From assembly GCA_025453495.1 (NCBI GenBank), contig JALOQM010000003.1, forward strand, positions 1 to 58,164: 58,164 nucleotides of DNA, written 5' to 3'. Position numbers and translations under genes: made by a program. Position 1 is the first letter of the stretch. Each line of letters begins with the position of its first letter. The stretch comes from Minisyncoccota bacterium (GTDB lineage: Bacteria > Patescibacteriota > Minisyncoccia > Phycocordibacterales > UBA9973). The notes below the pieces were generated by a model, which saw nothing but the letters and a program-made list of their open reading frames with translations, was not told where the DNA came from and made no database searches. Below are positions 6,711 to 31,564 of this stretch, piece by piece.

Positions 6711-6723
6711 ACTGCTAGATTAA

Positions 6724-6759: not shown

Positions 6760-6775
6760 ATTTGTTTACCACGAG

Positions 6776-6781
6776 TATAAT
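6776..6781 (+). promoter_or_regulatory. -10 box TATAAT, 7 nt upstream of the gatC ATG 6789
   Basis: TATAAT at 6776-6781, ATG at 6789. Confidence 0.4.
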
Positions 6782-6788
6782 GCCTTAT

Positions 6789-9150: not shown

Positions 9151-9476
9151 AAGTACTTGACAAAATATCATTATATAGTAGTATTCTTCTCAGGTATCTA
9201 TTGTGTATGTGAAGATTCGCTTCTACACAAGTCATCGCTCTTATGTAGGAAAAGAATAATGGAAGGACTGTAGGAATATTTAAAGAACTGTACACTTATT
9301 TAAGTCGGGGATTTGAGTACTTCTAGCCGCAAACTAGTACTTATCAATACTGATTAGCATTAGTATGCAATTTCTTTCCGGCGAAATAGCAAAATTCGCT
9401 GTGTTTGTGGGGCATAATAGACCTACCATAGATTTTTGTTTGTTTAAAAATCACAATCCTGTTGATTTTTAGAGAG

Positions 9477-9507
9477 GCCCCTTGACGATGAGCACGGGGC
9501 TTTTTTT
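9477..9507 (+). terminator. Rho-independent terminator with no adjacent upstream CDS
   Basis: gcccc...ggggc hairpin followed by T7. Lies about 330 nt after the previous stop codon. Confidence 0.6.
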
Positions 9508-9548
9508 ATTTATTTCCTCTAAAGTACGGTATACTACCGGATATCTAT

Positions 9549-10436
9549 ATGTCTTTCGATAAAGACGCAATCCAAAAGAAAGTAGATGCACTTGAGAGCG
9601 CGATGCAGTTGCCAGATTTTTGGTCTGACAAAATAAAAGCACAATCATCGATCAAAGAACTTGGTGAACTCAAAGATATGCTTGAAGGTCTTGGTAAATA
9701 CGACAAAGGTGACGCGGTTGTCACTATTTTTTCTGGTGCTGGTGGTGACGATGCAGAAGATTTTTCGCGAATACTCTATGTTATGTATAGTAAATTCATT
9801 TCTCGTAAAGGATGGGGGATGAGAATTATTCATGAACACACAAATGATCACGGCGGCTACCGCAATATTTCATTTGAGGTATCGGGACCACGTGCCTATG
9901 GTATACTTAAAAATGAGTCTGGTGTACACAGGCTCGTGCGTGTGTCACCATTTAATGCAAAAAATCTCCGACACACATCATTCTCTCTTGTCGAGATCAT
10001 TCCTAAATTCAAGAAGGTAGATGCTTCAGATATTGATGTGCCAGAACGCGACTTGAAGATAGAATTTGCTCGCTCAGGCGGTCCTGGGGGGCAAAACGTC
10101 AATAAGCGTGAGACAGCGGTACGCATCGTACATGTACCGACAGGTATGGCGGTGCATGCTGACAATGAGCGTTCGCAGGCGGATAATCGAGAAGTCGCGC
10201 TCTCAATCCTTAAGGCTAAGCTCTATAAACGTGAAGAAGATGAGCGTAAAGCCAAAGAAAAAGGAATGTATATCAGCAAAACAACTGATATTGAGTGGGG
10301 TAATCAGATTCGCTCATATGTACTGCACCCGTATAAGCTCGTCAAAGATCACCGTACCGGTGTCGAAGAGCGCAATGTCGATCGCATACTTGACGGTGAG
10401 CTCGATGCATTTATCGAAGCAGAAAAGAATCTCTAA
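9549..10436 (+). CDS. prfB: Peptide chain release factor 2 (compact form, no frameshift site)
   Basis: SPF motif (RVSPFNA), GGQ motif (SGGPGGQNVNK). 295 aa. Confidence 0.9.
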   Translation: MSFDKDAIQKKVDALESAMQLPDFWSDKIKAQSSIKELGELKDMLEGLGKYDKGDAVVTIFSGAGGDDAEDFSRILYVMYSKFISRKGWGMRIIHEHTNDHGGYRNISFEVSGPRAYGILKNESGVHRLVRVSPFNAKNLRHTSFSLVEIIPKFKKVDASDIDVPERDLKIEFARSGGPGGQNVNKRETAVRIVHVPTGMAVHADNERSQADNREVALSILKAKLYKREEDERKAKEKGMYISKTTDIEWGNQIRSYVLHPYKLVKDHRTGVEERNVDRILDGELDAFIEAEKNL

Positions 10437-13706: not shown

Positions 13707-15407
13707 TTAGAAAATATTAGGTAAATTTTTAAATGCTTTTACCAGATCTTCAATAGATACTGTGTGATGAGGTATTTTTTCTTTCGTCGCAATATGTTTA
13801 AACATTTCTTGTACTCTCGGTGCTATTGTCGGTGCAGAAAATATTCCATGAGTAGAATATTGAGTACCAATTTTCTTTTGAAGATTCATAATATGATCAT
13901 GAACAGAAGCTCCTTCAGCAGACCATTGCATTGCATTTGCTCTAATTGTTGTTAATTCTAAAACATAAACATTATTCTTAATAAAGAAATACACATCTGG
14001 GTATCCTTCTTTTCCACCCAAAGCTGGGTACATGATCCCAAAATCATCAACCCTACCATTCCATATTACATCATCAATCTGACCAGAATCTTTATATGTT
14101 TTAAGTAACTTATAAAATAAGTATTCTAATCTACCACCCCTCAGTTGAGCGGTATTAAAGTCGTTTTTACCTGTTATAGAACTAACCATACTAACATGAT
14201 GAGTATATAGAGGATCATAATCCTTACTATTTATTAACTCCAGTATTTTTCTTTCTAGAGTTTGCTGATTATCCTCTTCTCTAAGATTTACTTTAGTATT
14301 AGGTAAAATAAAGTCTATCTTATCTGAAACGATTTTTCTTTTCTCAGAGTGAAACAAGGTTGCATCAGAAAAACTAAAGAAGTCGAATTTGTATTCTTCA
14401 TCTTCGAAAAGTGCAACGTTAAATATAGATGAAGCAGAAGCTACACCAGAAGAAGTTTCTTTACCTTCGGTATTGTATACACGGACATAACATTTATCAG
14501 ACATGTTAGTTTTAATTTCAACAAGCAAAGGAGGGTGTGTTCTGTTAAAATCACCAAAATATTCTACCCAAAGTCTTAAGTTATCACCAAAGTCAAAAGG
14601 TTGGACATTTTTATATGTATCAAGCACTGAAATAACTTCATTTTTTGCCTCATCTTTTATATAAAGATCACCTAGTTTTCTTTCACATAAACCAGTTGTA
14701 ACACAAAGACCAATGTAGTACCCAGCAGTAGGGGCTTGTACCAAAGTTAGATTACCAATCTCAGTACTCTTAAAGGCTTCAATTTCTGCTCTTCTTCTTT
14801 CTTCTGGTAGTTGTCTAAAGGTTTTAATTTTCTCAACTATTAAATTAAATTCGTCCTCCTTCTTCATTGAAAAAACAATATAGCCTAATTCTTCTTTTGA
14901 AAGATATTGTAATTCAAGTAATAAACGTAGTGTGACTCTAAACGGAAAAAGTAAGATATTAACACAATCTTCTCTTATTACAGGATTTGAAATCTGCAAC
15001 TTATTCATTTGGTGTTCTACAACTTCAGATTGTAAAATTTCTTTTCCATTATCTGAAACTATTTTTAAATTTTTCCCTAAACCTAAAACTGACCCATGTT
15101 TTTTAAGTAACTCGAAACCAGCATTTGTTACATGTATAGTTGATGGCGTTGTAGAGTTATCAATAACAATAAAACCTAGATATTTTATTAAAGCTTCAAG
15201 TGTTCTTCTTGCAGATGGAGATAATGGTCTTCCTCTCTCAGTAAGACCATGTCTACCGAGTAAAGTATTAAAAGCTTCCTGTTTCATTGAAGTCCAAGAT
15301 TTACCATTAAAATTATCTTGTGACAAAATTTCAACAGAACCAATTATTTGGTGAATGTTTTGTCTTTTTGGTATATGCCAAATTTCTAGACTTCTTGTTC
15401 GTGTCAT
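13707..15407 (-). CDS. Putative restriction endonuclease (last gene of the M-M-R operon)
   Basis: 566 aa. C-terminal PD...E-x-T-like motif (GYPDVYFFIKNNVYVLELTT). 2-nt spacing to the upstream methyltransferase. The call rests mostly on context. Confidence 0.45.
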   Translation of the reverse strand: MTRTRSLEIWHIPKRQNIHQIIGSVEILSQDNFNGKSWTSMKQEAFNTLLGRHGLTERGRPLSPSARRTLEALIKYLGFIVIDNSTTPSTIHVTNAGFELLKKHGSVLGLGKNLKIVSDNGKEILQSEVVEHQMNKLQISNPVIREDCVNILLFPFRVTLRLLLELQYLSKEELGYIVFSMKKEDEFNLIVEKIKTFRQLPEERRRAEIEAFKSTEIGNLTLVQAPTAGYYIGLCVTTGLCERKLGDLYIKDEAKNEVISVLDTYKNVQPFDFGDNLRLWVEYFGDFNRTHPPLLVEIKTNMSDKCYVRVYNTEGKETSSGVASASSIFNVALFEDEEYKFDFFSFSDATLFHSEKRKIVSDKIDFILPNTKVNLREEDNQQTLERKILELINSKDYDPLYTHHVSMVSSITGKNDFNTAQLRGGRLEYLFYKLLKTYKDSGQIDDVIWNGRVDDFGIMYPALGGKEGYPDVYFFIKNNVYVLELTTIRANAMQWSAEGASVHDHIMNLQKKIGTQYSTHGIFSAPTIAPRVQEMFKHIATKEKIPHHTVSIEDLVKAFKNLPNIF

Positions 15408-15409
15408 AA

Positions 15410-16705
15410 TTATTTTTCTAAAACTAATATATAATCTTTTGGTATAAAACCCCCTCGACCAGATCTTGGGATACGGAGATAGCGATTTCTAATAATGTAA
15501 GAAAAATTAAGTCTCTTTTTATATCCTACATCTTTTGCTATTTTCAACAAAATACTTGCTGTATCAACTTCAAACCCTCGAATTCTACTATTGCCCACAA
15601 CAACGCAATAAAACCCTCCCGTCTGTAAACAGTCATAAACTGATTCCAAATTCTCTTTCATTGCCTGAAAATATTTAAACGTTACCCAAGATCTTTTTTT
15701 GTCTAACGAATATATTTTAGACAAAACTTCATCAAGTTCTCCTAATCCATACACAGGAACTTCATTTAATGTTTTAACTTTTTCTGAACCTATTTGGTGA
15801 TCATAAAGTGCATCTAATTTTTTTTTATCAAAACCATCCAGCCAAAAATTCTCTAACTTTAGAGATCTAACATAATCAAAAGCATTTATGTATGGAGGAG
15901 ATGTCATTGCTAGATTAACTTTTCCTGAGACTAGCGATTTACTGTCTATTTTTCTAGCATCAAAACCAATTATTTTAACCTCAGACTTATGATTTTCAGA
16001 AAAATCTTTAACTGCATCTATGTATTTTAATAAATTTTTTAAGAACTCATCAAAAACAACCACATGGTCTTTTTTTATCTTAGTAGAAATATATGGTTTA
16101 GGTGATTGATTATCAGCTTTTGAAACTTTTCGTATTATTGATGATAAAACTATCTCTAAAAAGTTTTTTACCTTTTTATTTTTAAACTTATCAAAATTTT
16201 CATGAATCAAAAAACGAATAAGAGCTAAGTCATTTATGTTTGATTCTGAGAACCAGTAAGTAATCAAATCCTTATCAGGAATATATAAACTACATTTAGA
16301 TTTAAATTTATGTGAGTTTTTTGTTGATATATGATAACTAGATATGAAATCATTGATTATAGAAAATTCTTTAGAAGATAATGGGGTTGTCTTGACGGCA
16401 CTTAGTAATTTACTAAGAGGATCAATATCAACACCATAACTTGGATAGCCTAAAATAGATGCTTCTACTAATGTAGTTCCTGAACCCATGAATGGATCCA
16501 AAACACCATACTTTTTTGTACTTTTTGAAGCATAATTTTTTATAAACCAACGCGGGATATGCGGTATAAACTTACAGGGATATTTGAAAATGCCATGAGT
16601 GGAACTTGAAATACCTGAAGCTTTAATTAAAAAAGTATCCCCGTTTTTAGGCTTAGGTGGAATATCAGATACTTCTATAATTCTTTCTTTCTTATCATTT
16701 TCCAT
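15410..16705 (-). CDS. DNA methyltransferase (N4-C/N6-A class)
   Basis: AdoMet motif DPFMGSGTTLVEA and catalytic TSPPYINAFDY. Confidence 0.8.
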   Translation of the reverse strand: MENDKKERIIEVSDIPPKPKNGDTFLIKASGISSSTHGIFKYPCKFIPHIPRWFIKNYASKSTKKYGVLDPFMGSGTTLVEASILGYPSYGVDIDPLSKLLSAVKTTPLSSKEFSIINDFISSYHISTKNSHKFKSKCSLYIPDKDLITYWFSESNINDLALIRFLIHENFDKFKNKKVKNFLEIVLSSIIRKVSKADNQSPKPYISTKIKKDHVVVFDEFLKNLLKYIDAVKDFSENHKSEVKIIGFDARKIDSKSLVSGKVNLAMTSPPYINAFDYVRSLKLENFWLDGFDKKKLDALYDHQIGSEKVKTLNEVPVYGLGELDEVLSKIYSLDKKRSWVTFKYFQAMKENLESVYDCLQTGGFYCVVVGNSRIRGFEVDTASILLKIAKDVGYKKRLNFSYIIRNRYLRIPRSGRGGFIPKDYILVLEK

Positions 16706-16707
16706 CT

Positions 16708-18015
16708 TTAATTCTTTTCTAAATAAATAATACTTTCTCTAAGATATCCACGATATTTTTCAGTTTCCTTATATTGTTGTGAACTAGTAATAATGTTGCG
16801 AGCAACTTCAATAGAGGAAACATTAAATCCCAAGTGTTTGGCAAACTTTGCTAGAAGTAGATCTGTTGGAACAATAACGCCTCCGTATGCTGAATTACTA
16901 ACAATAATTACACAGAAGCCACCTTTCTTTAATCCATTATAAATCTCTGTCATTGATCTAAACATATCATTAAAGTATGCTTCTACCATTTTAGGAATTC
17001 TTTTATCCCAAAGTTTCTTTGATGAAAGTTTGTTAACTAAAGCCCCTAATTCTGGGACACTTTCCACTGCAAGCTTAGATTCTATTTCATAACCATTTAA
17101 ATGAGATCTTATACCTTTTTTCCTTAGAATTTTTAAATCAGAGTATTCGCTTACAAATGAGCCCATCCAAAGTTCTACTTTGTAAATTTCAGTATAATCA
17201 AAACAATTAGCATAAGGAGGTGAAAAAATAACACCTTTTATTGAGTTCTTTTTTGTGTATTTACTTAAATTAAAACAAGTATCTTCAATGACTGAAGTAT
17301 TTACTTTACCCGAAATCTCAACAGCAAAATTTAAATCACTCTGAATATCGTTAATTGATTTAAAAAATAAATTTTTAACATATTCCTGATCTCTAATAGT
17401 TTTTTTAATTGTCTTACGAAACTTTAATCCGTTACCAGCTTTCCTGTAGTTTGATGATTCTTCTAATATACTCAGCCATGCAAGCATTAATAAGTCTGAT
17501 ACTTTCTTGCTTTTTATTTGATTAATTTTTTCTTTCAAGGTTAATAGATATAGTAGAGCATCATTATCGAACAATTGCTCAATCGTTGAGAGTTTGGGTA
17601 TGTTAACCTTCTGTTTACTTTTAACTTTTTTGAGATTAGCAATCTCTTTTATAAATAAAGCAACATCTTGTTTCTTATAGTCTTGAGTCTTAACTTTTGC
17701 TAAAAATGCAGAAAAGTGATTTATTTCAAAACCAATACTATTGCACTTATTTATCTTTGCTTGAAGAAGAGTGCTTCCACTACCACAAAAAGGGTCAACT
17801 ATTAGGTCGCCTTGTTTTACGTTGTACTTAGTAAGAATTTGATCAACTAATTTAATTGAATATCCTTCCTTATAGCGATACCATCTTTGAATTGGAAGAT
17901 CTAAGTCAGAGGCATAATTAACAAGACTCTTATATGTTACAGAGTTAATTTTCGGATAATTGACATTAAAATCTTTCTCAAAAGAAAGTAAAAATTTATC
18001 GTTAAAGTTCGCCAT
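16708..18015 (-). CDS. DNA methyltransferase (N4-C/N6-A class), same architecture as the neighbouring methyltransferase
   Basis: DPFCGSGSTLLQA and FSPPYANCFDY. Confidence 0.8.
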   Translation of the reverse strand: MANFNDKFLLSFEKDFNVNYPKINSVTYKSLVNYASDLDLPIQRWYRYKEGYSIKLVDQILTKYNVKQGDLIVDPFCGSGSTLLQAKINKCNSIGFEINHFSAFLAKVKTQDYKKQDVALFIKEIANLKKVKSKQKVNIPKLSTIEQLFDNDALLYLLTLKEKINQIKSKKVSDLLMLAWLSILEESSNYRKAGNGLKFRKTIKKTIRDQEYVKNLFFKSINDIQSDLNFAVEISGKVNTSVIEDTCFNLSKYTKKNSIKGVIFSPPYANCFDYTEIYKVELWMGSFVSEYSDLKILRKKGIRSHLNGYEIESKLAVESVPELGALVNKLSSKKLWDKRIPKMVEAYFNDMFRSMTEIYNGLKKGGFCVIIVSNSAYGGVIVPTDLLLAKFAKHLGFNVSSIEVARNIITSSQQYKETEKYRGYLRESIIYLEKN

Positions 18016-18101
18016 AAATGGTTAATTCATTTTAACATTTTTAGATTACTAATAAAAAAACTTTGTATTACAACATTGTTTTTTTAATAAAATCTTTTTC
18101 C

Positions 18102-18143
18102 CAGAACATAAAAGCACCCAATTGTGGGTGCTTTTATGTTCTG
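18102..18143. terminator. Perfect 19-bp palindromic hairpin (bidirectional terminator-like) separating two minus-strand operons
   Basis: cagaacataaaagcaccca-attg-tgggtgcttttatgttctg. The inner stem gcaccca/tgggtgc is followed by TTTTAT on either strand. Confidence 0.6.
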
Positions 18144-18195
18144 AATACTACCCTCAGCAGGTATGCAATGACTGAATAGATTCCTGAGTAAATTC

Positions 18196-18330
18196 GACCC
18201 TCTTCGGAGTCTGAACCTATCTCAAGCTAGCTGGCCTCCTCGGATTCGGAACTTTCTCCACCAAGCCCCATATAGGTTTTTTGGCTAAATAAAGTTTAGC
18301 ATTTTGACCCTCCTCGGAATGGGCCGAAAG
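18196..18330. repeat. Three copies of the 10-mer CCTCYTCGGA in a non-coding spacer
   Basis: Copies at 18199-18208, 18235-18244 and 18309-18318, each with similar flanks (GACC/GGCC ... GAAC/GAAAG). Confidence 0.5.
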
Positions 18331-18344
18331 CGACAAATGCGACA

Positions 18345-19424
18345 CTACTTGGACTTATCCTTTACCAGCTTCAGCAGGTCTTCTTCTCGCTCATATATAC
18401 GGAACCTGCCCGAGAGTATTCCGAGACGATAGTTGATTCCATCACTCATCAAACGCCAATTGGTCTCCTCAAGATTCTTCTTCAAGATACGAGCAAGCTT
18501 TGTTCTACTGTTGTATTCGTTACTCTCGGCAGGATCTTCAATCGTAAAGCCAATAGAAACAATTGATTCCATACTTGGCTGTTCAAAAATAAGATTTGAA
18601 TACGGCTCATCCTTTAGAGTGTCCACTACGAACTGCTTTAACTGTGGCACGGTCAGTTTCTTAAGGTTGTTTATTTTGTCATATTCTTCTTTGTGCTTTT
18701 CCTTTTCCTTCTGCTCGTCCATGAATTTAGCGATTCCCTCAAGATTCGCTTTCTCATCTAAATTTTTTCTTAGAGCTTCCCCTGAGAGACAGAAACGCTC
18801 CCTATCTTTTTCATAATCGGGATCTGGAATCTCTTCCTTATGAGAGATGTCCATTTCGTCTGTTTCAACATGACCGCATTTCCCACAAGTTTCCGTGGTG
18901 ATTATTTTCTTTTCATCAACTCTCTCGCTAGTACGCTGCATTTCTCCCTCACACTTTACGCAAATGTGGGGCTTGATCTTATATTCTTCTCCATTGTTAT
19001 AGAAAGCTCGATGCGGAACACACCCATTGGGACAGTCGTACATAAAAAGTATCCTGTCTGGCTTGTCACTTGACCCGTCCATGAATATCTTACTGCTTTC
19101 GGTAGTAAGACTTTGGCATTTGGAGCATCTAATAAGCTGAGGTGCCTGTGCACTTTCATAGAATTCGTCTTTCTTCGTATCTCGTGAAATCCATTCGCTG
19201 ATAGTCTTATCCTTGTCTTCCCACCATCTAACGGTGGCATACAAAAGATCGTAATGTAGAGCAATTTCTGACACTCCTTGATAGAACTTCTCGCTTACTT
19301 TCTCCGCAAGTTCTTCACTGGGTTTAGAGTTCTTATGGAAATTTTCTCGCCATCGGCAATCATTGACGGTTAGTCGATCATAAAGATCAACGTATTCCTG
19401 TTTTGATTTTAAATATTTACTCAT
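18345..19424 (-). CDS. Double Cys4 zinc-ribbon protein of unknown function (5th gene of the operon)
   Basis: C100-x2-C103...C131-x3-C135 and C155-x2-C158...C180-x2-C183. 8-nt overlap with the upstream methyltransferase gene. Confidence 0.6.
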   Translation of the reverse strand: MSKYLKSKQEYVDLYDRLTVNDCRWRENFHKNSKPSEELAEKVSEKFYQGVSEIALHYDLLYATVRWWEDKDKTISEWISRDTKKDEFYESAQAPQLIRCSKCQSLTTESSKIFMDGSSDKPDRILFMYDCPNGCVPHRAFYNNGEEYKIKPHICVKCEGEMQRTSERVDEKKIITTETCGKCGHVETDEMDISHKEEIPDPDYEKDRERFCLSGEALRKNLDEKANLEGIAKFMDEQKEKEKHKEEYDKINNLKKLTVPQLKQFVVDTLKDEPYSNLIFEQPSMESIVSIGFTIEDPAESNEYNSRTKLARILKKNLEETNWRLMSDGINYRLGILSGRFRIYEREEDLLKLVKDKSK

Positions 19425-21042
19425 CAGCAGAAACCTTGAGGCGACGATTAACGAGCTTAGAGTAAATATGATTTATATTCTTTATCTTCTTGTCAGACAG
19501 TTTTAGCTTCTCCTTAAGCACAACTTTATCTGTAAATTTTAGGATTTCTGCCAGAGGCTTCTTATTTCTTAGCATCTCGTCTAGCTTTTCAATGTCCTTA
19601 TCTTTGATCTTGAAATACGGCACTGATATGTTCTTAAACTCATTAGGCACCAATTCCAAAACTCCGCCACCATAGTATCTACCCTCCAGTTCTGTAAAGA
19701 TAAAAGTGAGACTATTGAAGAAACAGAAAGCGAGACTTTTTATATCAAAACCATCTTTCATTGAAATACGGTAGAAGGCATCCGTTATCATGATCTTTGC
19801 ACTATTCACTAAGATTCTAGGAAATAGATTACTTCGCTTAATGAATAAGCCTTCCGAAGCCCAAACGCTTGAAACATGGAACCAATTATTCCTAATTACA
19901 CACTTGTAGCCCGTGTGTACTTTTTTTTCTTCACCAGCTTTTATATACTCTCTTACTTTCTTCGGTAGAGATTCTCCGCCTTCGTCAGGCAAAGCAAGGA
20001 GGAATACTGGCTTTCCTTTTTTTTCTAAAACTGAAAAATCATTTTGAGTTATTGAAAGCGACTGAGGTATCAACGAGCTTTTCTGCAAGATCTTTTTGAC
20101 ATAAGGTTTTAATTCAAACTTATCGACCACAGACCTGTCTACAATAAAAAAGTTGTTTGCCGCAGTAACAATACCTACTTGGACTTTTGCGTAGTCCTTA
20201 ACAGCCTTAATATCTTTCTTGAAACTATCAAGAAAGTTTAGTTCGTCTTCTGAAAGGATATAGTTGGTCCACTTATCGAGCGTATCTCGATCTATGTTGG
20301 TATTACCCGGAATAAGATGAGGCTTCTTTAAATCAGTGAGTTTATTTGCTTGGAAAAATGATACCCCTTTTTGTTTTGAAGACTTTGTTCCAATTATGAT
20401 AATCACGTCTTGTTCAATACCATCAAAAACCAGCTCATTAAAAGCGAAGACTTCAATTTTATGAAGAGTTTTTCTAAGGTAATCTCTCAATTCCTTAGCG
20501 TAAGAAACTTGAAGCAATTCAGCTGGCAATACAAAAGATATGATTCCGTTCTCTGTAAGGGACTCTACTCCGCTTATCAGAAAAGCTGTCCAAATATTCT
20601 TTATCTTCTTATCAGAAAGATTTGCTTTTTGATGGATCTTTTCACAAAGTTCCAATTGTCTTTTGGTTAAGTGATTTTTCTTTATATACGGTGGATTACC
20701 AATGACCAAATCATATTTTTTTTGATTTGTTCTTTGAAACTCGAGGAAGTCCTGTAAATGGGATTCTAATTTGATCTTTTTATTTTTTGAGCCTTTAAAA
20801 AGACTTACGGCTTTTTCAAGTTCCTCCGAATCTCTTTCCACAATATCTAAAGCCGTGTCCGTCTTCTTACTAACCGCATTATTCAATAATGACTGAATAA
20901 AAATGCCATCTCCTACGCTTGGTTCTAATACGCTGATTTTCTTTGGAAGTTTATAGAATTTGGTATCAAAAATACGCTTGACTATAAAGTCGGACATTAT
21001 TTCGGGCGTATAGTATGATCCGTTTTCTTTTTGATTAATCAT
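19417..21042 (-). CDS. Gamma-class N6-adenine DNA methyltransferase (Eco57I/TaqI-like)
   Basis: GSYYTP; AdoMet motif VLEPSVGDGIF; catalytic VIGNPPYI. A long C-terminal region is the likely target-recognition domain. Confidence 0.85.
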   Translation of the reverse strand: MINQKENGSYYTPEIMSDFIVKRIFDTKFYKLPKKISVLEPSVGDGIFIQSLLNNAVSKKTDTALDIVERDSEELEKAVSLFKGSKNKKIKLESHLQDFLEFQRTNQKKYDLVIGNPPYIKKNHLTKRQLELCEKIHQKANLSDKKIKNIWTAFLISGVESLTENGIISFVLPAELLQVSYAKELRDYLRKTLHKIEVFAFNELVFDGIEQDVIIIIGTKSSKQKGVSFFQANKLTDLKKPHLIPGNTNIDRDTLDKWTNYILSEDELNFLDSFKKDIKAVKDYAKVQVGIVTAANNFFIVDRSVVDKFELKPYVKKILQKSSLIPQSLSITQNDFSVLEKKGKPVFLLALPDEGGESLPKKVREYIKAGEEKKVHTGYKCVIRNNWFHVSSVWASEGLFIKRSNLFPRILVNSAKIMITDAFYRISMKDGFDIKSLAFCFFNSLTFIFTELEGRYYGGGVLELVPNEFKNISVPYFKIKDKDIEKLDEMLRNKKPLAEILKFTDKVVLKEKLKLSDKKIKNINHIYSKLVNRRLKVSADE

Positions 21043-21692
21043 GAGCGCCTTCTTCTAACATCAGCTAATTCGTAAGCTGGGATCTTCTTCAGATCCATCA
21101 AATGTTTCGTTACTTTGGTATTTAAATCTGTAAGCTTTTTTATTAATTTTCCAGATGTTTTACCGCCCTTAGTCACAAGTTCGCCAATCAAAACGGCATG
21201 GTCAGCATTTAGTTTTTCAAATGCCTGTCTTAAAAAATATTCTTTCCTTTCTAGAATCAGCTGGGGTCGATTGAAATACAGTCTTTCAATCATGTACTTA
21301 GAGGCAACATAAGGACCAGATACAAGTCCTGTACTTTCGCTTACTTTAAAAAGTGTTGAGTAATCAACAGTGGACGGATCAGGATATGAACTAACAGAAT
21401 GCTTCTTTTTGGGTTCGCCAGGCCAATCATTGGCCTTGAAGCGATTACATATTGGACATGCGTAAAAAAGATTACTTAAGGAGTTTTCCAAATGTGCAAA
21501 TTCTGGTTTTGATTTAGGTCGATAGTGTTCAACATGGAATGCCTGAATACCCCCTAGTGCGTTTTCATGTACTGCACAGTAAACACATCGAAAGCCCCCT
21601 TCCTCTCGAAGAAACTCTTTTACTCTTGAATCACGGCAACCATAGGATTCAATTGTAGGATTTGCTGTTTTTTGTATTAATGACCATTTCAT
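21039..21692 (-). CDS. HNH endonuclease, PtuB/TIGR02646-like
   Basis: CVYC...FHVEHYRPKSK...NLFYACPICNRFK. ATGA overlaps with both neighbouring genes. Confidence 0.75.
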   Translation of the reverse strand: MKWSLIQKTANPTIESYGCRDSRVKEFLREEGGFRCVYCAVHENALGGIQAFHVEHYRPKSKPEFAHLENSLSNLFYACPICNRFKANDWPGEPKKKHSVSSYPDPSTVDYSTLFKVSESTGLVSGPYVASKYMIERLYFNRPQLILERKEYFLRQAFEKLNADHAVLIGELVTKGGKTSGKLIKKLTDLNTKVTKHLMDLKKIPAYELADVRRRRS

Positions 21693-22366
21693 TTTTTCTT
21701 TTTCTTCAAATGCTTTTTCGCTTCCTGTTGTGTCTTCTTTATCTCTTTGATCGTTTTCTCATATTCGTCTAACAATTCTTTTCTGCTGGATAGAGCTAAT
21801 GTGGTAACAGGAATTTCCAGATTCTGCTGGATAGCTTCCGCTCTTTTCTTTTGAGCATTCGTTGCTTTGCCTTGTGCGATCTTTTTGGAAATTACTGAAA
21901 GCTCAGAAAGTTCCTTTTCATTAAGATCTAAGAAGTTCTTATAGGTACGCAAAAATCTCTCAACATACTGACTAGCTTTTGACATGAATATGTCTCGCTC
22001 TACTACTTCATCAAAAAGTGCGAAATGCTCCTTAAGCGAAGGGTCAGCAGGATGAGAAGTAACTCCATATATGGGCATGTCCTTAAACTGCTTGCGAAGT
22101 ACTCCAACAAGATCGCTTCCTTTGTAATTTGCTGTTTGCCCGTCAGCATCAGGAACCTCACCTAGACGTTCATCTACAACCAGAACTCCAACCTGCTGTT
22201 TATTTACCCAGTCAGTGTAATCTTTCAGTTTTGGGAAGGGTGCTGATTTAAGAACTGACCATTCAGTTCCTATTTCCAAATTCGTGATTGCATCTTCAAT
22301 AGCACTTGTGACAAAGTTTCTTGCGTCGACGTTATCATCAATTACTGCGATTTTTACTTTTTTCAT
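21689..22366 (-). CDS. Stand-alone receiver (REC)-like protein with a K/E-rich coiled-coil tail
   Basis: KIAVIDDN acidic pair and a VGVLVVDE acceptor-like motif. No DNA-binding or enzymatic output domain is visible. Confidence 0.6.
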   Translation of the reverse strand: MKKVKIAVIDDNVDARNFVTSAIEDAITNLEIGTEWSVLKSAPFPKLKDYTDWVNKQQVGVLVVDERLGEVPDADGQTANYKGSDLVGVLRKQFKDMPIYGVTSHPADPSLKEHFALFDEVVERDIFMSKASQYVERFLRTYKNFLDLNEKELSELSVISKKIAQGKATNAQKKRAEAIQQNLEIPVTTLALSSRKELLDEYEKTIKEIKKTQQEAKKHLKKKKK

Positions 22367-22368
22367 AA

Positions 22369-24564
22369 TTAATTAGCAGGTAACCAAACACGGAAGCGCG
22401 CTCCTTTAAGTTTCTGATCTTTAGTCACCTCCTTATCACCGCCCAGCTCTTCTACAGTATTCTTTACAATGGTGAGACCGAGCCCAGTACCTTCTTCATT
22501 TCCTGTCTTGCCCTTTTTCGTAGTGAAAAGTGGCACCCAAATCATGTCAGCAATGCTTTTATCGACCCCTGGTCCGCTATCAGCAACCACAATCTCAAAA
22601 CCTTTTCTTGAACCCTGATTTTTCTCGTAAAGCTCAATACGAATTTTTCGATCCTTTCCAACCTGGCCACAAGCACTATAAGCATTGGTTAGGAGGTTAA
22701 GAACTATAGATTCGATATCCATCACAAAAACCTTTGCATCCACTTCTTTGAGTTCTTTTATCAAATCAATCTTGATTGCCTTGAAAGCACCTTCAACTTC
22801 AGCGATCACACTTTCAATTGCACTTTTCACACTAATCTTTTGACGAGTTCTTTTATCCTTGCGTACTCGAGCCATAGCGAATGCTCCCCATGAGGAAACC
22901 TGCTTCGCATAACCAAGTGAAGTCTCAAGCTGTTCCAAAGCCCTTTTAACGTTAGGCGACTTCAAAGAAAGTGATGACTGAGCTGCGGATACACCAGATC
23001 TAAAAAGAGAAACAGCAGTTTGTGTTTCGTGACCAAATACAGCGGCTGCTATACCCACCGTTGCAAGACCACTTAAAACACGATTGTTATCAAGCAACTC
23101 CTCAAATCTGCGTTTGGTCTCTTCGGTCTTTTTAATTACCTCTGCAATTTGTCCTACCGACTCTTTGCTTTCCTTTGTGTCCTTACTTCCTAATTTAGCC
23201 TGCAACTCTTCAAGATTCTTTTGCAGATTTTCGAGATCATCCCGATATGTATCAACCTCTTCGATCAATCCGGGCTTATTTTTCTTTTCCTCAGCCTTTT
23301 TATTCTTTACAGCTCCTTCGTGTCGGTGTTTTTCAATTAAAGTTACACAAGCGAGCGTTAATGCTCTTAGATCATAGAAAGCTTCACTTTCGATCAATCC
23401 CTCTCGAGAAGCACCGTCAATTAACTGAGGATTAGTATCTCTCCCAATGGCAACAGCACCCACCATTTGGTGGGAAGAAACCTTGTAGGTTTCTCTCGAG
23501 AGACCTGCTGGGTCTCTTTCTTTTCTCTGAGCAAGACCAAGCCAGTCACCTGACGGTTCGTTGTTATAACCATAAGGCTTTACGCTGATCTGGTCTCTGT
23601 ATATTTTTATACCGAGATTCTTATCTAGAAAGTTTCGTAGACCTTTGAGACTTAGTCCCTTTTCAGCCAGAAGAGGATTATTTTTTGTACGTCCGAAAAA
23701 GAGAATATCAATGGATACAGGACCGCAACTTAGTTTGTTATTGAAGCCGACATCGGTGTTAACTCTTTGAGAAAGCTTGTCCCAAGAGATTGTGTTCGGA
23801 TATGTTCGTGTCTTTGAATCGGTCTTCTCAATTATTTTATATTTTATTTGTTGTGACTTACCATCAAAGGTTGCTTGGAGGGCTATTTCAGAAGCTTCAT
23901 AATATGACGATCTTACGGAACCGTTTAGCTCCTCTAGTAAATGGTTAGTGAATTTAATTTCAAAATCCTTAACAGCCGAGAATGGAGAAATGAGGGCGGA
24001 AAGTTCGCTGTATACCTGTTCTATATCTGTCCTCAACCAATCCTGCCTTAAATCTGAAATCAAAATTTCAGTGCCAGAGTTTCTTGCAGATTTAGGAGTT
24101 GTTATCTTATCAGTATCAGCAATTGTGACAGGGATATCAGAGAGACTCTTACCGTCAACATTGAATTGCTCCCAATTAATTGAAAGCTTCAAGGGGTTTG
24201 TCTTTTCTGATTTTGTGTTGAGAACAAGCCTCTCACCAAGACGATCTGTGGAAAGTCGTCCGATACCTTTCTCACCAGTTTTTCTTCGCGACTTCTTACT
24301 AACCTTTTTTGATCGCTTCTCAGAATATCCAATACGCAACCAATTTTCCTCAAGTTGAGTTGCGGTCATTCCGATCCCGTTGTCGGCAACACGAATACCG
24401 TCCTTGTTTATTTCAACCTCAACAATAGTTGCATCTGCATCGTAACTGTTTTTAACAAGCTCAAGCAGTGCTGTTGTAGGGTTCTTTATGCTGTCTCGCC
24501 CAAGGTTAATAATCGTACGAGCATCGATACTAAAAGACTTTATTTTATGGTTTTCCTTGGGCAT
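22369..24564 (-). CDS. Fusion of a MORC/MutL-like GHKL ATPase with a histidine-kinase transmitter (DHp + CA)
   Basis: Module 1: ELVKNSYDA (35-43), DNGIGM (61-66), GEKGIGRLS (97-105). Coiled coil at about 415-500. His box FGHETQT (H512). Module 2: LLTNAYSA (623-630), DSGPGV (662-667), GTGLGL (692-697). No TM segments. Confidence 0.8.
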   Translation of the reverse strand: MPKENHKIKSFSIDARTIINLGRDSIKNPTTALLELVKNSYDADATIVEVEINKDGIRVADNGIGMTATQLEENWLRIGYSEKRSKKVSKKSRRKTGEKGIGRLSTDRLGERLVLNTKSEKTNPLKLSINWEQFNVDGKSLSDIPVTIADTDKITTPKSARNSGTEILISDLRQDWLRTDIEQVYSELSALISPFSAVKDFEIKFTNHLLEELNGSVRSSYYEASEIALQATFDGKSQQIKYKIIEKTDSKTRTYPNTISWDKLSQRVNTDVGFNNKLSCGPVSIDILFFGRTKNNPLLAEKGLSLKGLRNFLDKNLGIKIYRDQISVKPYGYNNEPSGDWLGLAQRKERDPAGLSRETYKVSSHQMVGAVAIGRDTNPQLIDGASREGLIESEAFYDLRALTLACVTLIEKHRHEGAVKNKKAEEKKNKPGLIEEVDTYRDDLENLQKNLEELQAKLGSKDTKESKESVGQIAEVIKKTEETKRRFEELLDNNRVLSGLATVGIAAAVFGHETQTAVSLFRSGVSAAQSSLSLKSPNVKRALEQLETSLGYAKQVSSWGAFAMARVRKDKRTRQKISVKSAIESVIAEVEGAFKAIKIDLIKELKEVDAKVFVMDIESIVLNLLTNAYSACGQVGKDRKIRIELYEKNQGSRKGFEIVVADSGPGVDKSIADMIWVPLFTTKKGKTGNEEGTGLGLTIVKNTVEELGGDKEVTKDQKLKGARFRVWLPAN

Positions 24565-24641
24565 ATTTGAAGTCTGAAGTATTCGGCTGAAGAATTTACC
24601 TCATCAACAAAATCTTACCATTTTAGGCGACATTTTGGAAC

Positions 24642-25076
24642 TTAATCAATAAGCCTATGAATGGCAACGCCGCTCAGGATTTTATGCTTTTTCAGACCGT
24701 TGCACTTCCTGCATGCCAGTGTCAGGTTGCGTGGATGATTAGAACCAAAACTTTGCGAGAGCACTTTTGCACCAGCGGTGCCTGTGAGCTTACGAAGCTC
24801 CTTGTTAAGGATGTTCGATGAGAGTGGAATGATGTGATCAGGCTCGAGACCATGTGATGGACTGCATTCGGGGTGAAGCCGTAATTGGCATTCGCCGTTG
24901 TACTTTTCAACGAGATCACGCAGGACATTCTTGCTGGTCTTATCGAACTCCCACCGCTTAATTGCAGGGTGACGAAAATCAAATAGATCAGAATATGCAA
25001 CGACTAGTTGATTCGTATCTCCGTTTGCAAGTAAGTGTGAGAAGAATTCCTGATCTTCAGGAAACTCAAACTGCAT
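24642..25076 (-). CDS. Small HNH endonuclease
   Basis: C...C...EPDHIIPLS...NLTLACRKCNGLKKHK. Confidence 0.75.
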   Translation of the reverse strand: MQFEFPEDQEFFSHLLANGDTNQLVVAYSDLFDFRHPAIKRWEFDKTSKNVLRDLVEKYNGECQLRLHPECSPSHGLEPDHIIPLSSNILNKELRKLTGTAGAKVLSQSFGSNHPRNLTLACRKCNGLKKHKILSGVAIHRLID

Positions 25077-25425
25077 TTGCGATGAGCGTGATGATAGCTA
25101 TCACCACGACCACTACAACGCAGATCATTATTTTCTCTCCTCGGGAATACTTTCGGGGAGGCTCTTTTTCGGCAAGTGCTTGTTCGAGAGTCTTGCCTTG
25201 TTCAGCCAGAACTTTCTGTCCAATTGGCGAATCGAGCGGAATGAGGTTAGTCGAACCACACTTCTTGCACGTCTTATATCGTGAAAACGAACGCCAGATG
25301 GAATATATGATTCCTGGAATAATAAAGCAGAGCCAGAGAACGAGCTCAATGAGACCGTTCCCTTTGATGGCAGTTTTCGAACTGCCGATATGTCCGCAAG
25401 CGGAGCATATAAGTTTTTGTGACAT
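25066..25425 (-). CDS. Small membrane protein with a split zinc ribbon
   Basis: CSAC...TM hairpin...CKKC, plus a C-terminal TM helix (ICVVVVVVIAIITLI). 11-nt overlap with the HNH gene. Confidence 0.55.
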   Translation of the reverse strand: MSQKLICSACGHIGSSKTAIKGNGLIELVLWLCFIIPGIIYSIWRSFSRYKTCKKCGSTNLIPLDSPIGQKVLAEQGKTLEQALAEKEPPRKYSRGEKIMICVVVVVVIAIITLIANAV

Positions 25426-25430
25426 GTTTT

Positions 25431-25575
25431 TGTTGATCGCGTTTTCTAATAAAACTCGATGTTCGGGTACACAAAAACCCGGACACCAAGGTGAGCCTTG
25501 CGGCCCCTACGTAAGTTTCCCTACGCAACGCGATCAACGCCCCTGATGCCGGGGTTTTTATGTTGATCGCGTTTT
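25431..25575. repeat. Three copies of the GATC-containing 12-mer GTTGATCGCGTT (two direct, one inverted); operator-like
   Basis: Copies at 25432-25443 (+), 25527-25538 (inverted) and 25562-25573 (+). Copies 1 and 3 share the 15-mer TGTTGATCGCGTTTT. Copy 1 begins 7 nt upstream of the minus-strand start codon at 25425. Confidence 0.6.
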
Positions 25576-25738
25576 TGACCATACCTTAAGGACGAATCTC
25601 TAAGGGTTAGGTCTGCATATTCAGTTGTGTAAGTACATGATACCAAAATCAGTACCCTTTGGCACCCTATCGCACTTCGGGGGTTCTGCGAAGCCTCCAG
25701 ACTATGGACAAATTAATCCATATGTTTCCCACTCTCGA

Positions 25739-25827
25739 GATATCCACAAGCGACTTTCTGGCTTCAATTTACAACCCTGACATCCACAAGATTGCTACTG
25801 TGAATCTCAAGAAAAGTTCAATTTACA
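25739..25827. repeat. Iteron-like short direct repeats
   Basis: GAYATCCACAAG at 25739 and 25779. TTCAATTTACA at 25763 and 25817. Confidence 0.45.
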
Positions 25828-25986
25828 GTACTTACAAAATTCTCGAAAAATGAGATGGTTTTTGCGATTGCCAGAGTAAATCAGGTTGCTAGACTTCAAG
25901 TACCGAACGAGGAACTTCGAACACTTCTCTATAGGATCCCTAGACTGACACCTAAATTGTTTTAATCAAATAATTTTTTGTTACCT

Positions 25987-27282
25987 ATGGATCAGAAATC
26001 CTCTGCTCTTACTATTGAGCACGTTAAGGTTAGTGAATTAAAAGCAAACGAGTACAATCCCAAGGTTTTTGACGACCGTGCCAAGAACCAAATCGAGGAA
26101 TCGATAAAGCGGTTCGGCTTCGTTGACCCGCTCATCTGCAACAGCGCTCCGAACAGAAAGAATATTCTGATTGGTGGTCACGGCCGTCTCAAGATTGCCA
26201 AGCGACTGAAGATGAAGACCGTCCCTGTGGTCTACGTGAACATTCCCGACATCGAGCGCGAGAAAGAATTAAACGTAAGACTTCATAAGAACCAAGGTGA
26301 ATTTGACCTTGAACTTCTTGGCAAGTTCTTTGACGAAACAACACTCTCTGATGTCGGTTTCAGTGCAGAAGAACTTGAAGATATTTTTACCGAACTCGAC
26401 ACATCAAAAGACGAATTCGATACGGAGAAAGAGCTGAAGAAGATACGGAAGCCCAAGAGCAAGCGAGGTGATTTGTACCAGCTTGGACCCCATCGACTGT
26501 ACTGCGGTGATTCAACGGATATCGAATCGGTAAAGAAAGTTGTCGGTGATGAGAAGATCGATATGGTCTACAACGACCCAATCTACAATACCAAATGGCT
26601 TTCGTACGGCTCTGGTGTCGGTGGAAAGAAAAACTACGGTGGTACGGTGGACGACAACAAGACGGACGACGAGTATGCGGACTTCCTGACCAAGACGATG
26701 GAGAACGCCCTGTCGGTCTGCAACAAGGACGCTCACATATTCTATTACTGTGACGAGACCTACGTCCCGATGGTTGCGAGCCTGTACCAGAAGCTCGGAA
26801 TAGACTTCAAGCGTATCTGTCTGTGGCTCAAAGGTATAGCAAACCCAGTGCCTCAAGTTGCCTTCTCAAAGGTATACGAACCATGTGTATACGGGACAGT
26901 CGGCAAACCATACCTTTCGGGCAACCACACCAACTATGACGAGGTGCTGAACAAAGACATTGGTACTGGCGTGGAGATGATTGAGAACTTCCTTGAGATG
27001 GTGAATGTGTGGGCGGTTCAGAGACTCGGAGGAAACGCCTACGAGCACCCTACCGAGAAGCCTGTCACGCTCCACGACAAACCAATCAAAAGGTGCACGA
27101 AGATTGGCGGAAGCATCCTGTCTCTGTTTGGCGGAAGTGGTGGTGAGCTGATTGCGGCGCACCAGCTCAAGCGAAGGTGCTTCATGGTTGAGATCGAACC
27201 TGTCTTCGTAGATCTCATCATCAGGCGATGGGAAGCTCTCACGGGTGAAAAAGCTGTAAAGATTAGCTCGCATGAAGTTTAG
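25987..27282 (+). CDS. ParB-like nuclease domain fused to a beta-class DNA methyltransferase
   Basis: N-terminus ...GGHGRLKIAKRL (ParB/Srx fold). Motif IV variant NDPIYN precedes motif I LFGGSGGELIAAHQL. ATG 25987 is preferred over the ORF-track TTG 25978. Confidence 0.8.
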   Translation: MDQKSSALTIEHVKVSELKANEYNPKVFDDRAKNQIEESIKRFGFVDPLICNSAPNRKNILIGGHGRLKIAKRLKMKTVPVVYVNIPDIEREKELNVRLHKNQGEFDLELLGKFFDETTLSDVGFSAEELEDIFTELDTSKDEFDTEKELKKIRKPKSKRGDLYQLGPHRLYCGDSTDIESVKKVVGDEKIDMVYNDPIYNTKWLSYGSGVGGKKNYGGTVDDNKTDDEYADFLTKTMENALSVCNKDAHIFYYCDETYVPMVASLYQKLGIDFKRICLWLKGIANPVPQVAFSKVYEPCVYGTVGKPYLSGNHTNYDEVLNKDIGTGVEMIENFLEMVNVWAVQRLGGNAYEHPTEKPVTLHDKPIKRCTKIGGSILSLFGGSGGELIAAHQLKRRCFMVEIEPVFVDLIIRRWEALTGEKAVKISSHEV

Positions 27283-27891: not shown

Positions 27892-29217
27892 ATGCAAACT
27901 AGCGTAAGTGCCCAAATAGGGGTTCCAGAGTCCGTACCTGTTGAGAGGGTGCGTTATTGCCTGTATGCCCGTAAATCGACTGAATCGGATGAAAAACAGG
28001 CTCTATCCATTGATTCTCAGGTGAAAGAAATGCTTGCCATAGCGGAGCGTGAGGGTCTTGAAATTGTGGACATACGGCGTGAATCGCATTCAGCGAAGGC
28101 TTCGGGACAACGTCCTGTATTCAATGAGCTTATCCGTGATCTTAACAGTGGCAGGTACACTGGCATTTTGACATGGGCACCAGACCGCCTTTCTCGAAAT
28201 GCAGGAGATCTTGGAACACTGGTTGATTTAATGGACGAGAAGAGACTTCATCAGATAAGGACGTACGGACAATCATTTCAAAACTCACCGAGTGAGAAGT
28301 TTCTGCTCATGATCCTCTGTAGTCAAGCAAAGCTCGAGAATGATAATAAAAGCATCAATGTGAAGCGAGGTTTGAAAACCCGATGCGAGATGGGTCTGTG
28401 GCCAGCTCCTGCGCCTATGGGCTATTTAAACGAAATGCGGGCTGATCGTAAGGGATATGTCTATGTTGATCCAGAACGAGGGCATATCATCCGCCAGATG
28501 TTCGAGAAGGTGGCCTATCAGAAATGGTCTGGACGCAAAGTCTATCACTGGCTCAAATTTGATATGAACTTCAAGTCTCCTAAGGGCAATAAGGGTCTCA
28601 ATCTCAGTACGATATTCCTTATCCTCCAAAACCCTTTCTACTATGGTGCGTTCGAGTTTCCGAGAAAAAGCGGAAACTGGTACAAAGGCAGACATGAAGC
28701 ATTAATAACCAAAGAATTATTTGATCAGGTACAGCAACAGATGAAAGCCCAATTTAGCAGGACGTGGGACAAGGAATTCGCTTTTACCAAGTTGATGCTC
28801 TGCGGTCTGTGTGGATCGGGTATTTGTGCTGACGAGAAGTTTAAAAAGCTAAAGAACGGCAGTATCAGTCGACATTGTTATTATGGCTGTACAAAAGCAC
28901 GAGACAAAAATTGCAAGTGCGGGTATATATCGGAAGATGAACTTATAGAACAACTGATTGCGCTAATGGATACGATAGATATCAACGAGGTCGGAATCAA
29001 AGAAAAGATAAAAGACGAGGTGAAGAAGATTAAGCGGTTTCAGCAAAGCTTGCTTGGCATCAAAGAGAATATTGATGTGAATGATATTGATATTCGAGCA
29101 TATACAAAATACATTTTGAAAGATGGATCAATTACAGAAAAACGTGAGTTGCTTGGGTGTCTTACAAGCAGAATCACACTCAATCAAAAGAAAATTAGTT
29201 TACTTCATCAACAATAA
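27892..29217 (+). CDS. Large serine recombinase (integrase)
   Basis: Resolvase catalytic region YCLYARKSTESDE...DRLSRN. Recombinase domain. Cys-rich zinc ribbon (CGLCGS...C) and a coiled-coil tail. 441 aa. Confidence 0.85.
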   Translation: MQTSVSAQIGVPESVPVERVRYCLYARKSTESDEKQALSIDSQVKEMLAIAEREGLEIVDIRRESHSAKASGQRPVFNELIRDLNSGRYTGILTWAPDRLSRNAGDLGTLVDLMDEKRLHQIRTYGQSFQNSPSEKFLLMILCSQAKLENDNKSINVKRGLKTRCEMGLWPAPAPMGYLNEMRADRKGYVYVDPERGHIIRQMFEKVAYQKWSGRKVYHWLKFDMNFKSPKGNKGLNLSTIFLILQNPFYYGAFEFPRKSGNWYKGRHEALITKELFDQVQQQMKAQFSRTWDKEFAFTKLMLCGLCGSGICADEKFKKLKNGSISRHCYYGCTKARDKNCKCGYISEDELIEQLIALMDTIDINEVGIKEKIKDEVKKIKRFQQSLLGIKENIDVNDIDIRAYTKYILKDGSITEKRELLGCLTSRITLNQKKISLLHQQ

Positions 29218-31490: not shown

Positions 31491-31564
31491 TGGCTGCGGG
31501 TCAGGGACTCGAACCCCAATACCATGCTCCAGAGGCATGTGTCCTACCATTAGACGAACCCGCA
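31491..31564 (-). tRNA. tRNA-Gln (anticodon CTG), CCA encoded
   Basis: Manual cloverleaf: acceptor TGCGGGT/ACCCGCA (U1-A72), D stem GTCT/GGAC, anticodon stem CATGC/GCATG with loop CT-CTG-GA, T loop TTCGAGT, discriminator G, then CCA. Confidence 0.9.

Follow-up and report, generated by a model that had tools for sequence, protein, structure and literature searches.

Ambrosia, which defends Pseudomonas aeruginosa against phage, consists of an XRE regulator (AbrR), an N6 methylase (AbrA), a kinase (AbrB), a receiver (AbrC) and an HNH nuclease (AbrD), and mutating any one component abolishes defence (10.1101/2025.09.30.679545). It has been reported only from Gammaproteobacteria, with 537 instances (10.1101/2025.09.30.679545). 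Here, we relate to this system a gene cluster in a 58,164-nucleotide stretch of DNA (hereafter the window; contig JALOQM010000003.1 of the Minisyncoccota assembly GCA_025453495.1), in which five consecutive genes encode a fusion of a GHKL ATPase and a histidine kinase (P1), a receiver (P2), an HNH nuclease (P3), an adenine methyltransferase (P4) and a zinc-ribbon protein (P5). We consider it likely that P1 to P4 (19417-24564) form an Ambrosia-class system with a swapped and relocated methylase and no XRE gene, an assignment that draws on homology to a validated system, conserved gene order, predicted folds and retained catalytic residues.

Using the Abr sequences from the supplementary table of the preprint, we found P1 to match AbrB at 35.8% identity over 399 aa (E = 2.6e-68; AbrB was compared over its first 400 residues only), P3 to match AbrD at 30.8% over 172 aa (E = 6.9e-15), and P2 to match AbrC at 24.8% over 145 aa (E = 5e-8), the last alignment being confined to the receiver domain. 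The substitutions AbrB N40A, AbrC D60A and AbrD H60A each abolish defence (10.1101/2025.09.30.679545), and the three residues correspond to N39, D65 and H56 of the window proteins, where all are kept. Kinase (HATPase_c_3 plus HATPase_c), receiver and PtuB-type HNH nuclease are homologous and follow the same order, and both clusters include an N6-adenine methylase. The methylases themselves differ, however. AbrA aligns with P4 at 23% identity in the catalytic core only (E = 3.7e-4), and its relatives form a separate methylase cluster (C8) from that of P4 (C3); P4 is of the Eco57I type with an M_Eco57I_C domain and follows the HNH gene, whereas AbrA is N6_Mtase/MmeI-like and precedes the kinase. 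Further, AbrR is a HipB-like XRE regulator that has no counterpart in the window operon, AbrC has a winged helix where the P2 model (of moderate confidence here) shows a tail of three helices without a wing, and the host is a Patescibacteria genome. The published hidden Markov model score thresholds are 100 for AbrA, 500 for AbrB, 150 for AbrC and 200 for AbrD (10.1101/2025.09.30.679545); because an AbrA-type methylase was required, that census would miss the Eco57I-type form, which is the commoner one in our sample.

The initial annotation had proposed a new defence system and knew of none described that joins a phosphorelay to a nuclease and methyltransferase. This claim is to be corrected: kinase, receiver and HNH nuclease are homologous to AbrB, AbrC and AbrD, a core already validated as Ambrosia, and a link between kinase-receiver pairs and restriction-modification (R-M) genes was predicted in 2021. 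In that purely computational study, kinases with HATPase_c_3, HEF_HK and HATPase_c domains stand beside receiver-only genes with 91.6% linkage, and type II R-M genes, C5 methylases, Vsr and HNH_2 are enriched in the surroundings of the pairs (PMC8011034). The window resembles them in its soluble HATPase_c_3-DHp-HATPase_c kinase with a receiver-only neighbour and in its proximity to R-M genes and HNH nucleases, whereas their emphasis on C5 methylases, Vsr and HNH_2 fits a sister branch (group B, below) better. At E ≤ 10, neither PF19191 (HEF_HK) in P1 nor PF19192 (Response_reg_2) in P2 gave a match, and both were absent from representatives of groups B and C at E ≤ 0.01; the 120 closest homologues of P1 carry no PF19191 label, the presence of PF19191 in the library searched being unconfirmed. 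Filing the locus under these two 2021 Pfam families was not possible for lack of a match. Earlier, Iyer, Abhiman and Aravind (2008) described the paraMORC1 family, in which a GHKL plus S5 module bears a distinct C-terminal extension and whose operons include HNH nucleases; the window likewise has a GHKL domain, a C-terminal extension and an HNH neighbour, a likeness drawn from the description only. A Flavobacterium phage-resistance paper that was also considered proved unrelated.

For P1, Pfam, profile comparison and structural model together give the predicted architecture, a GHKL ATPase joined to a DHp/CA kinase core. Pfam places HATPase_c_3 at residues 30-149 (7e-23) and HATPase_c at 616-730 (3.5e-24). 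The N-terminal ATPase is of the paraMORC/MutL type, with the motifs N39, D61xGxG65 and T96GEKGxG102; it is followed by a conserved middle domain (~190-390), a coiled coil (~394-500), a DHp helix with H512-E-T, and a CA domain with N-box residues N623/N627, DSGPG and GTGLGL. Both sets of ATP-binding motifs and H512-E513-T514 are invariant in an alignment of 24 homologues. When the family profile was compared with the PDB, H512 aligned with the phospho-accepting histidine of HK853, confirming the histidine proposed for the DHp helix, and residues 23-89 were placed on MutL, PMS and MORC3. In the AlphaFold model (mean predicted local distance difference test score, pLDDT, 77) a long coiled coil runs into the DHp-CA unit, which superposes on HK853, EnvZ and CpxA with template modelling (TM) scores of ~0.65, rising to 0.82-0.86 against isolated CA domains; this Foldseek search was made with full-length P1, and its top 50 matches all cover the kinase half and none the N-terminal or middle domains. 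Among NCBIfam models, residues 438-730 align with many histidine-kinase families and residues 11-189 match the BbrUII/HgiDII family NF050001 (6e-26; 91 bits against a cutoff of 550), and PADLOC matches are weak and fall on REase_II N-termini and MzaB. No transmembrane segment was found in P1, in keeping with the cytoplasmic location first proposed. Relatives of ~730 aa number in the thousands, and a search with the N-terminal 430 residues, which are specific to the family, yields 666 clusters (50% identity) at E ≤ 1e-30.

P2 matches Pfam Response_reg at 0.0075, below the cutoff, and its homologues carry no Pfam label. A profile of 44 P2 sequences matches solved receiver domains in the PDB, and the AlphaFold model, fed with an alignment of 16 database homologues, is a canonical (beta-alpha)5 receiver with TM-scores of 0.70-0.77 against the PhoP, Spo0F and NtrX receivers (Foldseek). 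The receiver residues are D10-D11, D65, T103 and R124, the latter at the beta5 Lys position; D65 is invariant among homologues, D10 and T103 nearly so. P2 had been described as a stand-alone receiver with no output domain. The receiver fold is borne out, but P2 is not a bare receiver, having a tail of ~85 residues that the model folds into three helices at 150-224 without a beta wing (pLDDT 50-80). Within the limits of this moderate-confidence tail, no helix-turn-helix (HTH) match was found in Pfam or the PDB, and the tail profile matches only coiled-coil or helical-bundle entries of the PDB.

P3 carries the motif CxxC...HxEHxxPKS...CxxCNxxK (Pfam HNH), comprising C36, C39, H56, N74, C79, C82, N83 and K86, and its C-terminal half is helical. 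The zinc and catalytic residues are invariant in the family alignment and the PADLOC PtuB model matches at 1e-18, in agreement with the proposed PtuB/TIGR02646-type nuclease; against the NCBIfam models P3 scores 27.8 bits for PtuB (cutoff 150) and 26 for TIGR02646 (cutoff 52). In P4, Pfam recognizes Eco57I, N6_Mtase and M_Eco57I_C domains, with NPPY at residue 116 and the S-adenosylmethionine motif VLEPSVGDG at 38, and the full length matches the PADLOC model MTase_II PDLC03267 at 1e-153. Judged by these domains, P4 is a complete stand-alone N6-adenine methyltransferase of the gamma class first assigned to it, with its own C-terminal target-recognition region. The catalytic residues named beforehand (H512, the receiver aspartate, the HNH residues and NPPY) are all conserved.

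To place the locus among its relatives, we sampled 80 related genome loci and clustered all neighbouring genes. In 47 of them, the window included (group A), kinase, receiver (~224 aa) and HNH nuclease (~212 aa) occur in strict order, across ~11 phyla: Patescibacteria, Bacteroidota, Gemmatimonadota, TM6, Pseudomonadota, Planctomycetota, Chloroflexota, Verrucomicrobiota, Acidobacteriota, Elusimicrobiota and Bacillota. A methylase is present at 40 of the 47, of the Eco57I type as P4 at 33 and an AbrA-type N6 methylase at seven; of the remaining seven, six are truncated by contig ends and only L026 shows none. A rough neighbour-joining tree suggests at least three methylase switches within the group. 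Whether the partner genes co-occur with the kinase across phyla had been put as a question by the initial annotation; GHKL/kinase fusion, receiver, PtuB-type HNH and N6-adenine methyltransferase do so and form a conserved defence-type unit.

Two sister groups carry other partners. In group B (15 loci: L034-L036, L040, L047, L054, L059, L061-L063, L073-L075, L077 and L080), the gene directly after the kinase encodes a receiver fused to a ~230-aa domain, and C5 methylases are usually nearby. The fused domain has a TPxCDL...K motif with invariant P-x-C-D and R and no sequence match in Pfam or the PDB; it may be an unrecognised nuclease. In group C (14 loci, mainly cyanobacterial: L038, L041, L043-L045, L048, L049, L051, L057, L060, L066, L067, L069 and L071), kinase and receiver are followed by a metallo-beta-lactamase (MBL)-fold hydrolase that replaces the HNH nuclease. 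Two cases with an N6 methylase upstream were seen, L049 and the Hymenobacter plasmid NZ_CP095070.1 (L091); on the plasmid the genes run N6 methylase, kinase, receiver, MBL hydrolase. Since groups A to C differ in nuclease and methylase, the kinase-receiver pair is the constant part and these partners vary. On viral contigs we found one relative only, truncated by a contig end.

Some individual loci with the kinase-receiver-HNH core showed further features. In the Akkermansiaceae loci L026 and L028, whose kinase-receiver-HNH core is the closest to AbrD, a TIR/SEFIR-NACHT-TPR gene on the opposite strand adjoins the core (7176-10370 and 3693-6857, respectively). At L084, a sister of the window locus, the HNH nuclease (3212-3865) is 72% identical to P3 and kinase, receiver and methylase are 89-95% identical, a pattern that points to a nuclease that has changed faster or been replaced; after the methylase lies a 175-aa gene (5487-6014) with a PD-(D/E)xK-like motif and no Pfam match.

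How these parts might work together can be proposed from their homologies. P1 would be a cytoplasmic dimer that detects a cue of infection, most likely DNA, with its N-terminal MutL/MORC-like ATPase clamp and its middle domain. Sensing would drive the kinase core, with phosphorylation of H512 and transfer of the phosphate to D65 of P2, a step we infer because the motifs are intact and the AbrC D60A mutant loses defence. Phosphorylated P2, through its helical tail, would then contact P3 and release or activate it, and P3 would cut DNA with little sequence specificity. P4, by homology, would methylate adenines at its own target sequence.

The preprint proposes transcriptional control instead, since reporters at abrA and abrD were silent until infection and AbrC has a winged helix (10.1101/2025.09.30.679545). 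Under that model the phosphorylated receiver would be a DNA-binding activator of silent methylase and HNH genes, and the nuclease would cut DNA bearing the system's own methyl mark; that phage grown on an AbrA-expressing host are still sensitive to Ambrosia agrees with it (10.1101/2025.09.30.679545), as does an XRE-type gene that lies upstream, only in a divergent subclade of the family. For the window operon, we favour control by protein contact, which on sequence and model fits this locus better and agrees with the initial idea of a receiver that licenses the nuclease. Kinase, receiver, nuclease and methylase are translationally coupled without a regulator gene, so that the receiver cannot switch on the nuclease without itself having been produced from the transcript that the two share. 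Neither an XRE gene nor a C-protein gene lies upstream of P1, where the open reading frame (ORF) list and Pfam gave no HTH ORF in 24565-25978. The moderate-confidence model of the P2 tail shows no DNA-binding fold, the similarity of P2 to AbrC ends with the receiver domain, and sister branches fuse the receiver to a non-HTH domain; the receiver followed by an MBL-fold hydrolase in group C also counts as support for protein contact. For these reasons transcriptional control appears unlikely for the window variant.

The role of the methylase allows a further alternative, in which P4 methylates the host constantly, P1, P2 and P3 together cut unmethylated DNA as a type II-like R-M system, and the kinase-receiver pair tunes this activity. 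Of 41 judgeable loci, 40 have a methylase with the core, the operon is tightly coupled without a regulator gene, P4 matches a type II methylase model over its full length, and the P1 N-terminus matches the BbrUII/HgiDII family, although over the ATPase domain only and far below the cutoff given above. C5 methylases are expected to be paired with Vsr repair genes where a host genome is constantly methylated. Such pairs characterize the branch described in 2021 (PMC8011034) and, with the near-universal methylase linkage, suggest constant self-marking, the role that the initial annotation gave the methyltransferase. The sensitivity of AbrA-methylated phage to Ambrosia, by analogy, argues against it (10.1101/2025.09.30.679545). 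Further, the small PtuB-type HNH nuclease has no target-recognition domain, and the same core occurs with two unrelated methylase families between which the rough tree suggests repeated switches. We therefore regard an R-M system of this kind as possible but doubtful.

A broader reading, which we put forward tentatively, is that the superfamily is a phosphorelay-gated nuclease platform acting by protein contact, with interchangeable effector and methylase and with the Eco57I form, and not that of Pseudomonas, as the commonest across bacteria. P1 would be the cue-reading ATPase/kinase, the effectors would be the HNH nuclease (group A), the receiver-fused domain (group B) or the MBL hydrolase (group C), and in Patescibacteria the whole would be cargo of a hotspot reaching from a ParB-methylase to a P5-family gene.

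Several points weigh against the assignment to Ambrosia or against the proposed mechanism. Identity to Ambrosia is 25-36%, for AbrB over the first 400 residues only, and Ambrosia itself rests on one unreviewed preprint (10.1101/2025.09.30.679545). The window locus and the Eco57I-type variants are known here as sequences alone. One core locus, L026, shows no visible methylase, and the cue attributed to P1 is our inference. Infection-induced abrA and abrD and the AbrC winged helix counter the protein-contact step unless the variants differ (10.1101/2025.09.30.679545), and with a pLDDT of 50-80 the tail of P2 may hold a small DNA-binding fold.

Comparison with other defence systems gives partial likenesses. 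P3 is PtuB-type as in Septu (by the PADLOC match, the NCBIfam PtuB score being below cutoff). In Septu, an ATPase partner restrains the nuclease. The window, in contrast, has no PtuA ABC/AAA ATPase, the partner here being the GHKL-kinase with its receiver, and PtuA-model matches in PADLOC fall on P3 itself (residues 19-162 of 217) and not on a separate ATPase gene. Detocs (kinase DtcA, receiver DtcB, receiver-effector DtcC) is likewise built on a histidine-kinase to receiver phosphorelay, and the group B receiver with its conserved C-terminal domain recalls DtcC; the window differs in having one receiver, not two, a MORC-like ATPase in the kinase, a separate HNH effector and a methylase, and none of the PADLOC Detocs models matched its proteins. 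BbrUII/HgiDII and VcSduA, the latter a GHKL-nuclease fusion of type I-D Shedu (PMC12137116), also couple an N-terminal GHKL ATPase to a nuclease in defence; there the nuclease is fused to the ATPase, whereas here a kinase is fused and the separate nuclease is linked via the receiver. With type II R-M the locus shares a stand-alone methylase with a target-recognition domain, but it has no recognised restriction endonuclease, the REase_II and BbrUII/HgiDII matches of P1 covering the ATPase domain only. We rejected membership in Septu, Detocs, Mza and classical type II R-M.

No full-length PADLOC system model matched the locus, the core of which has already been described as Ambrosia. In Table S1 of the preprint, DefenseFinder labels AbrB a type II REase and AbrA a type II MTase (10.1101/2025.09.30.679545), and existing classifiers probably mislabel the kinase-methylase family as type II R-M. 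RefSeq labels plasmid copies 'ATP-binding protein' or 'sensor histidine kinase'. Taken at face value, such labels, together with 'CheY-like', would make P1 and P2 a housekeeping two-component pair adjoining unrelated nuclease and methylase genes by chance. This we judge highly improbable: the order is fixed across ~11 phyla, the locus is homologous to a system that needs all four activities for defence and lies in a mobile island, and P1 has no sensor or membrane domain.

The layout of the operon and its surroundings is given in Table 1. The five minus-strand ORFs lie where the initial annotation placed them (ORF list), and its four gene junctions and 19-bp hairpin were reproduced by base-by-base reading and a repeat scan. 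The P1/P2 junction is TAA-TT-ATG, those of P2/P3 and P3/P4 are ATGA each, and that of P4/P5 is ATGAGTAA, an 8-nt overlap. P1 to P4 are translationally coupled in one transcript, with which P5 is probably co-transcribed, given its overlap with P4.

Table 1. Positions in the window of the operon, its flanking sequence and neighbouring genes
Feature	Position	Strand	Description
P1	22369-24564	minus	731 aa, AbrB homologue
P2	21689-22366	minus	225 aa, AbrC homologue
P3	21039-21692	minus	217 aa, AbrD homologue
P4	19417-21042	minus	541 aa, Eco57I-type N6-adenine methyltransferase
P5	18345-19424	minus	359 aa, two Cys4 zinc ribbons
Inverted repeat	18102-18143		arms 18102-18120 and 18125-18143, 19 nt, 4-nt loop
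Region upstream of P1	24565-24660	minus	77-nt intergenic gap and end of neighbouring HNH gene
Promoter-like site	24649-24620		TTGATT-18-TAAAAT
Direct repeats	18199-18323		three copies of a 15-nt motif
Two small genes	24642-25425	minus	119-aa and 144-aa proteins, 11-nt overlap
AlwI-family cassette	13707-18015	minus	restriction enzyme and two methylases
ParB-methylase	25978-27282		phage-type
Serine integrase	27892-29217		
tRNA-Gln (CTG)	31491-31564	minus	sole tRNA of the window

The arms of the hairpin, 200 nt downstream of P5, are 100% complementary, and ~2e-7 perfect repeats of this kind are expected by chance in 58 kb. The terminator scan made no call there because the hairpin lacks a clean T-run, and Rfam gave only matches below gathering scores on 17900-18450, driven by the hairpin. 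It is probably a transcript end or stabiliser that divides the P1-P5 unit from the AlwI-type R-M cassette. In the 200 nt that separate P5 from the hairpin, the motif CCTCCTCGGAxTxGG occurs in three direct copies; its coding-strand form is CCGAATCCGAGGAGG-like and had no match in Rfam. On the other side, a promoter scan found a promoter-like site upstream of P1, which we read only as compatible with a promoter because such sites are no commoner in the window than in shuffled sequence (16 found against 16.7 expected). Two small genes lie just upstream of P1 and overlap one another: the 119-aa product of one has a zinc ribbon at its N-terminus, a single hydrophobic stretch in its interior and a C-terminus that is strongly hydrophobic, and the second gene encodes a 144-aa HNH protein. 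Homologues of the two were detected in none of the 80 related loci, and they may be an independent two-gene module.

P5 had been counted as the fifth member of the unit. Of that unit, the four genes P1 to P4 stand, whereas P5 occurs in none of the 80 loci, not even in the nearest named relatives among Paceibacterota, where the methylase is directly followed by a serine recombinase. P5 has two Cys4 clusters (C100/103/131/135 and C155/158/180/183) and no family in Pfam, PADLOC, NCBIfam or PHROG; a weak match to TackOD1 (0.005) was judged to be zinc-ribbon noise. A novel five-gene system with P5 as a subunit would account for the overlap of the P5 start with the P4 stop, the hairpin after P5, and the P5-like gene two genes after the methylase at L084 (kinase 95% identical), which shares 45% identity with P5 over the N-terminal zinc-ribbon part and differs in its C-terminus. 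Full-length homologues of P5, however, number more than 648, and all with a named source are from Patescibacteria. Of those sampled, one stands directly beside a ParB-methylase with no cargo (L086), one beside a cyclic-oligonucleotide-based anti-phage signalling system (CBASS) operon flanked by a ParB-methylase with a recombinase beyond (L087), one near type I R-M genes, Fic and a recombinase (L088), and one beside a helicase and housekeeping genes (L085). With the Ambrosia homology speaking against novelty of the system as a whole, P5 as a subunit seems improbable. P5 and the hairpin are best read as neighbours of the P1 to P4 system and not as subunits, P5 being a flank gene of a cargo slot.

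The frame of the window matches these P5-family contexts, with a ParB-methylase, a small-terminase-like gene and a serine integrase, and cargo at the slot varies from none through CBASS and nearby type I R-M to the Ambrosia-like operon of the window. The P5-family slot with ParB-methylase and serine recombinase looks like a defence-cargo hotspot of a mobile element of candidate phyla radiation (CPR) bacteria. Consistent with the initial claim of a defence island on an integrase-bearing element, P1 to P4 lie in an island of ~13.6 to 29.2 kb (15.6 kb) that has housekeeping genes on both sides and, beyond the operon, holds the AlwI-type R-M cassette, the phage-type ParB-methylase and the serine integrase. 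The cassette has 29-32% GC against ~42% around it and encodes a 566-aa restriction enzyme (PADLOC REase_II 7e-110) and two N6/N4 methylases (1e-97 each); it resembles a type IIS-like R-M system in which each strand has its own methylase. The only tRNA gene of the window, tRNA-Gln, lies ~2.3 kb past the serine integrase, and the three genes between the two seem to be ordinary ones outside the island.

In conclusion, what had been proposed as a new system is probably a member of a family whose core is already validated as Ambrosia and for which a study of 2021 had predicted a two-component link with R-M genes. The family spans ~11 phyla, as against Gammaproteobacteria only in the preprint, most of its members have a different methylase, and its genes currently go under type II R-M, 'ATP-binding protein' or 'sensor histidine kinase' in tools and public annotation. 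The window variant belongs to the CPR bacteria, whose defence systems are little studied. As it has no regulator gene and no recognisable DNA-binding output, it would offer a clean test of direct versus transcriptional control of the nuclease, and also a test of what the methylase is for.

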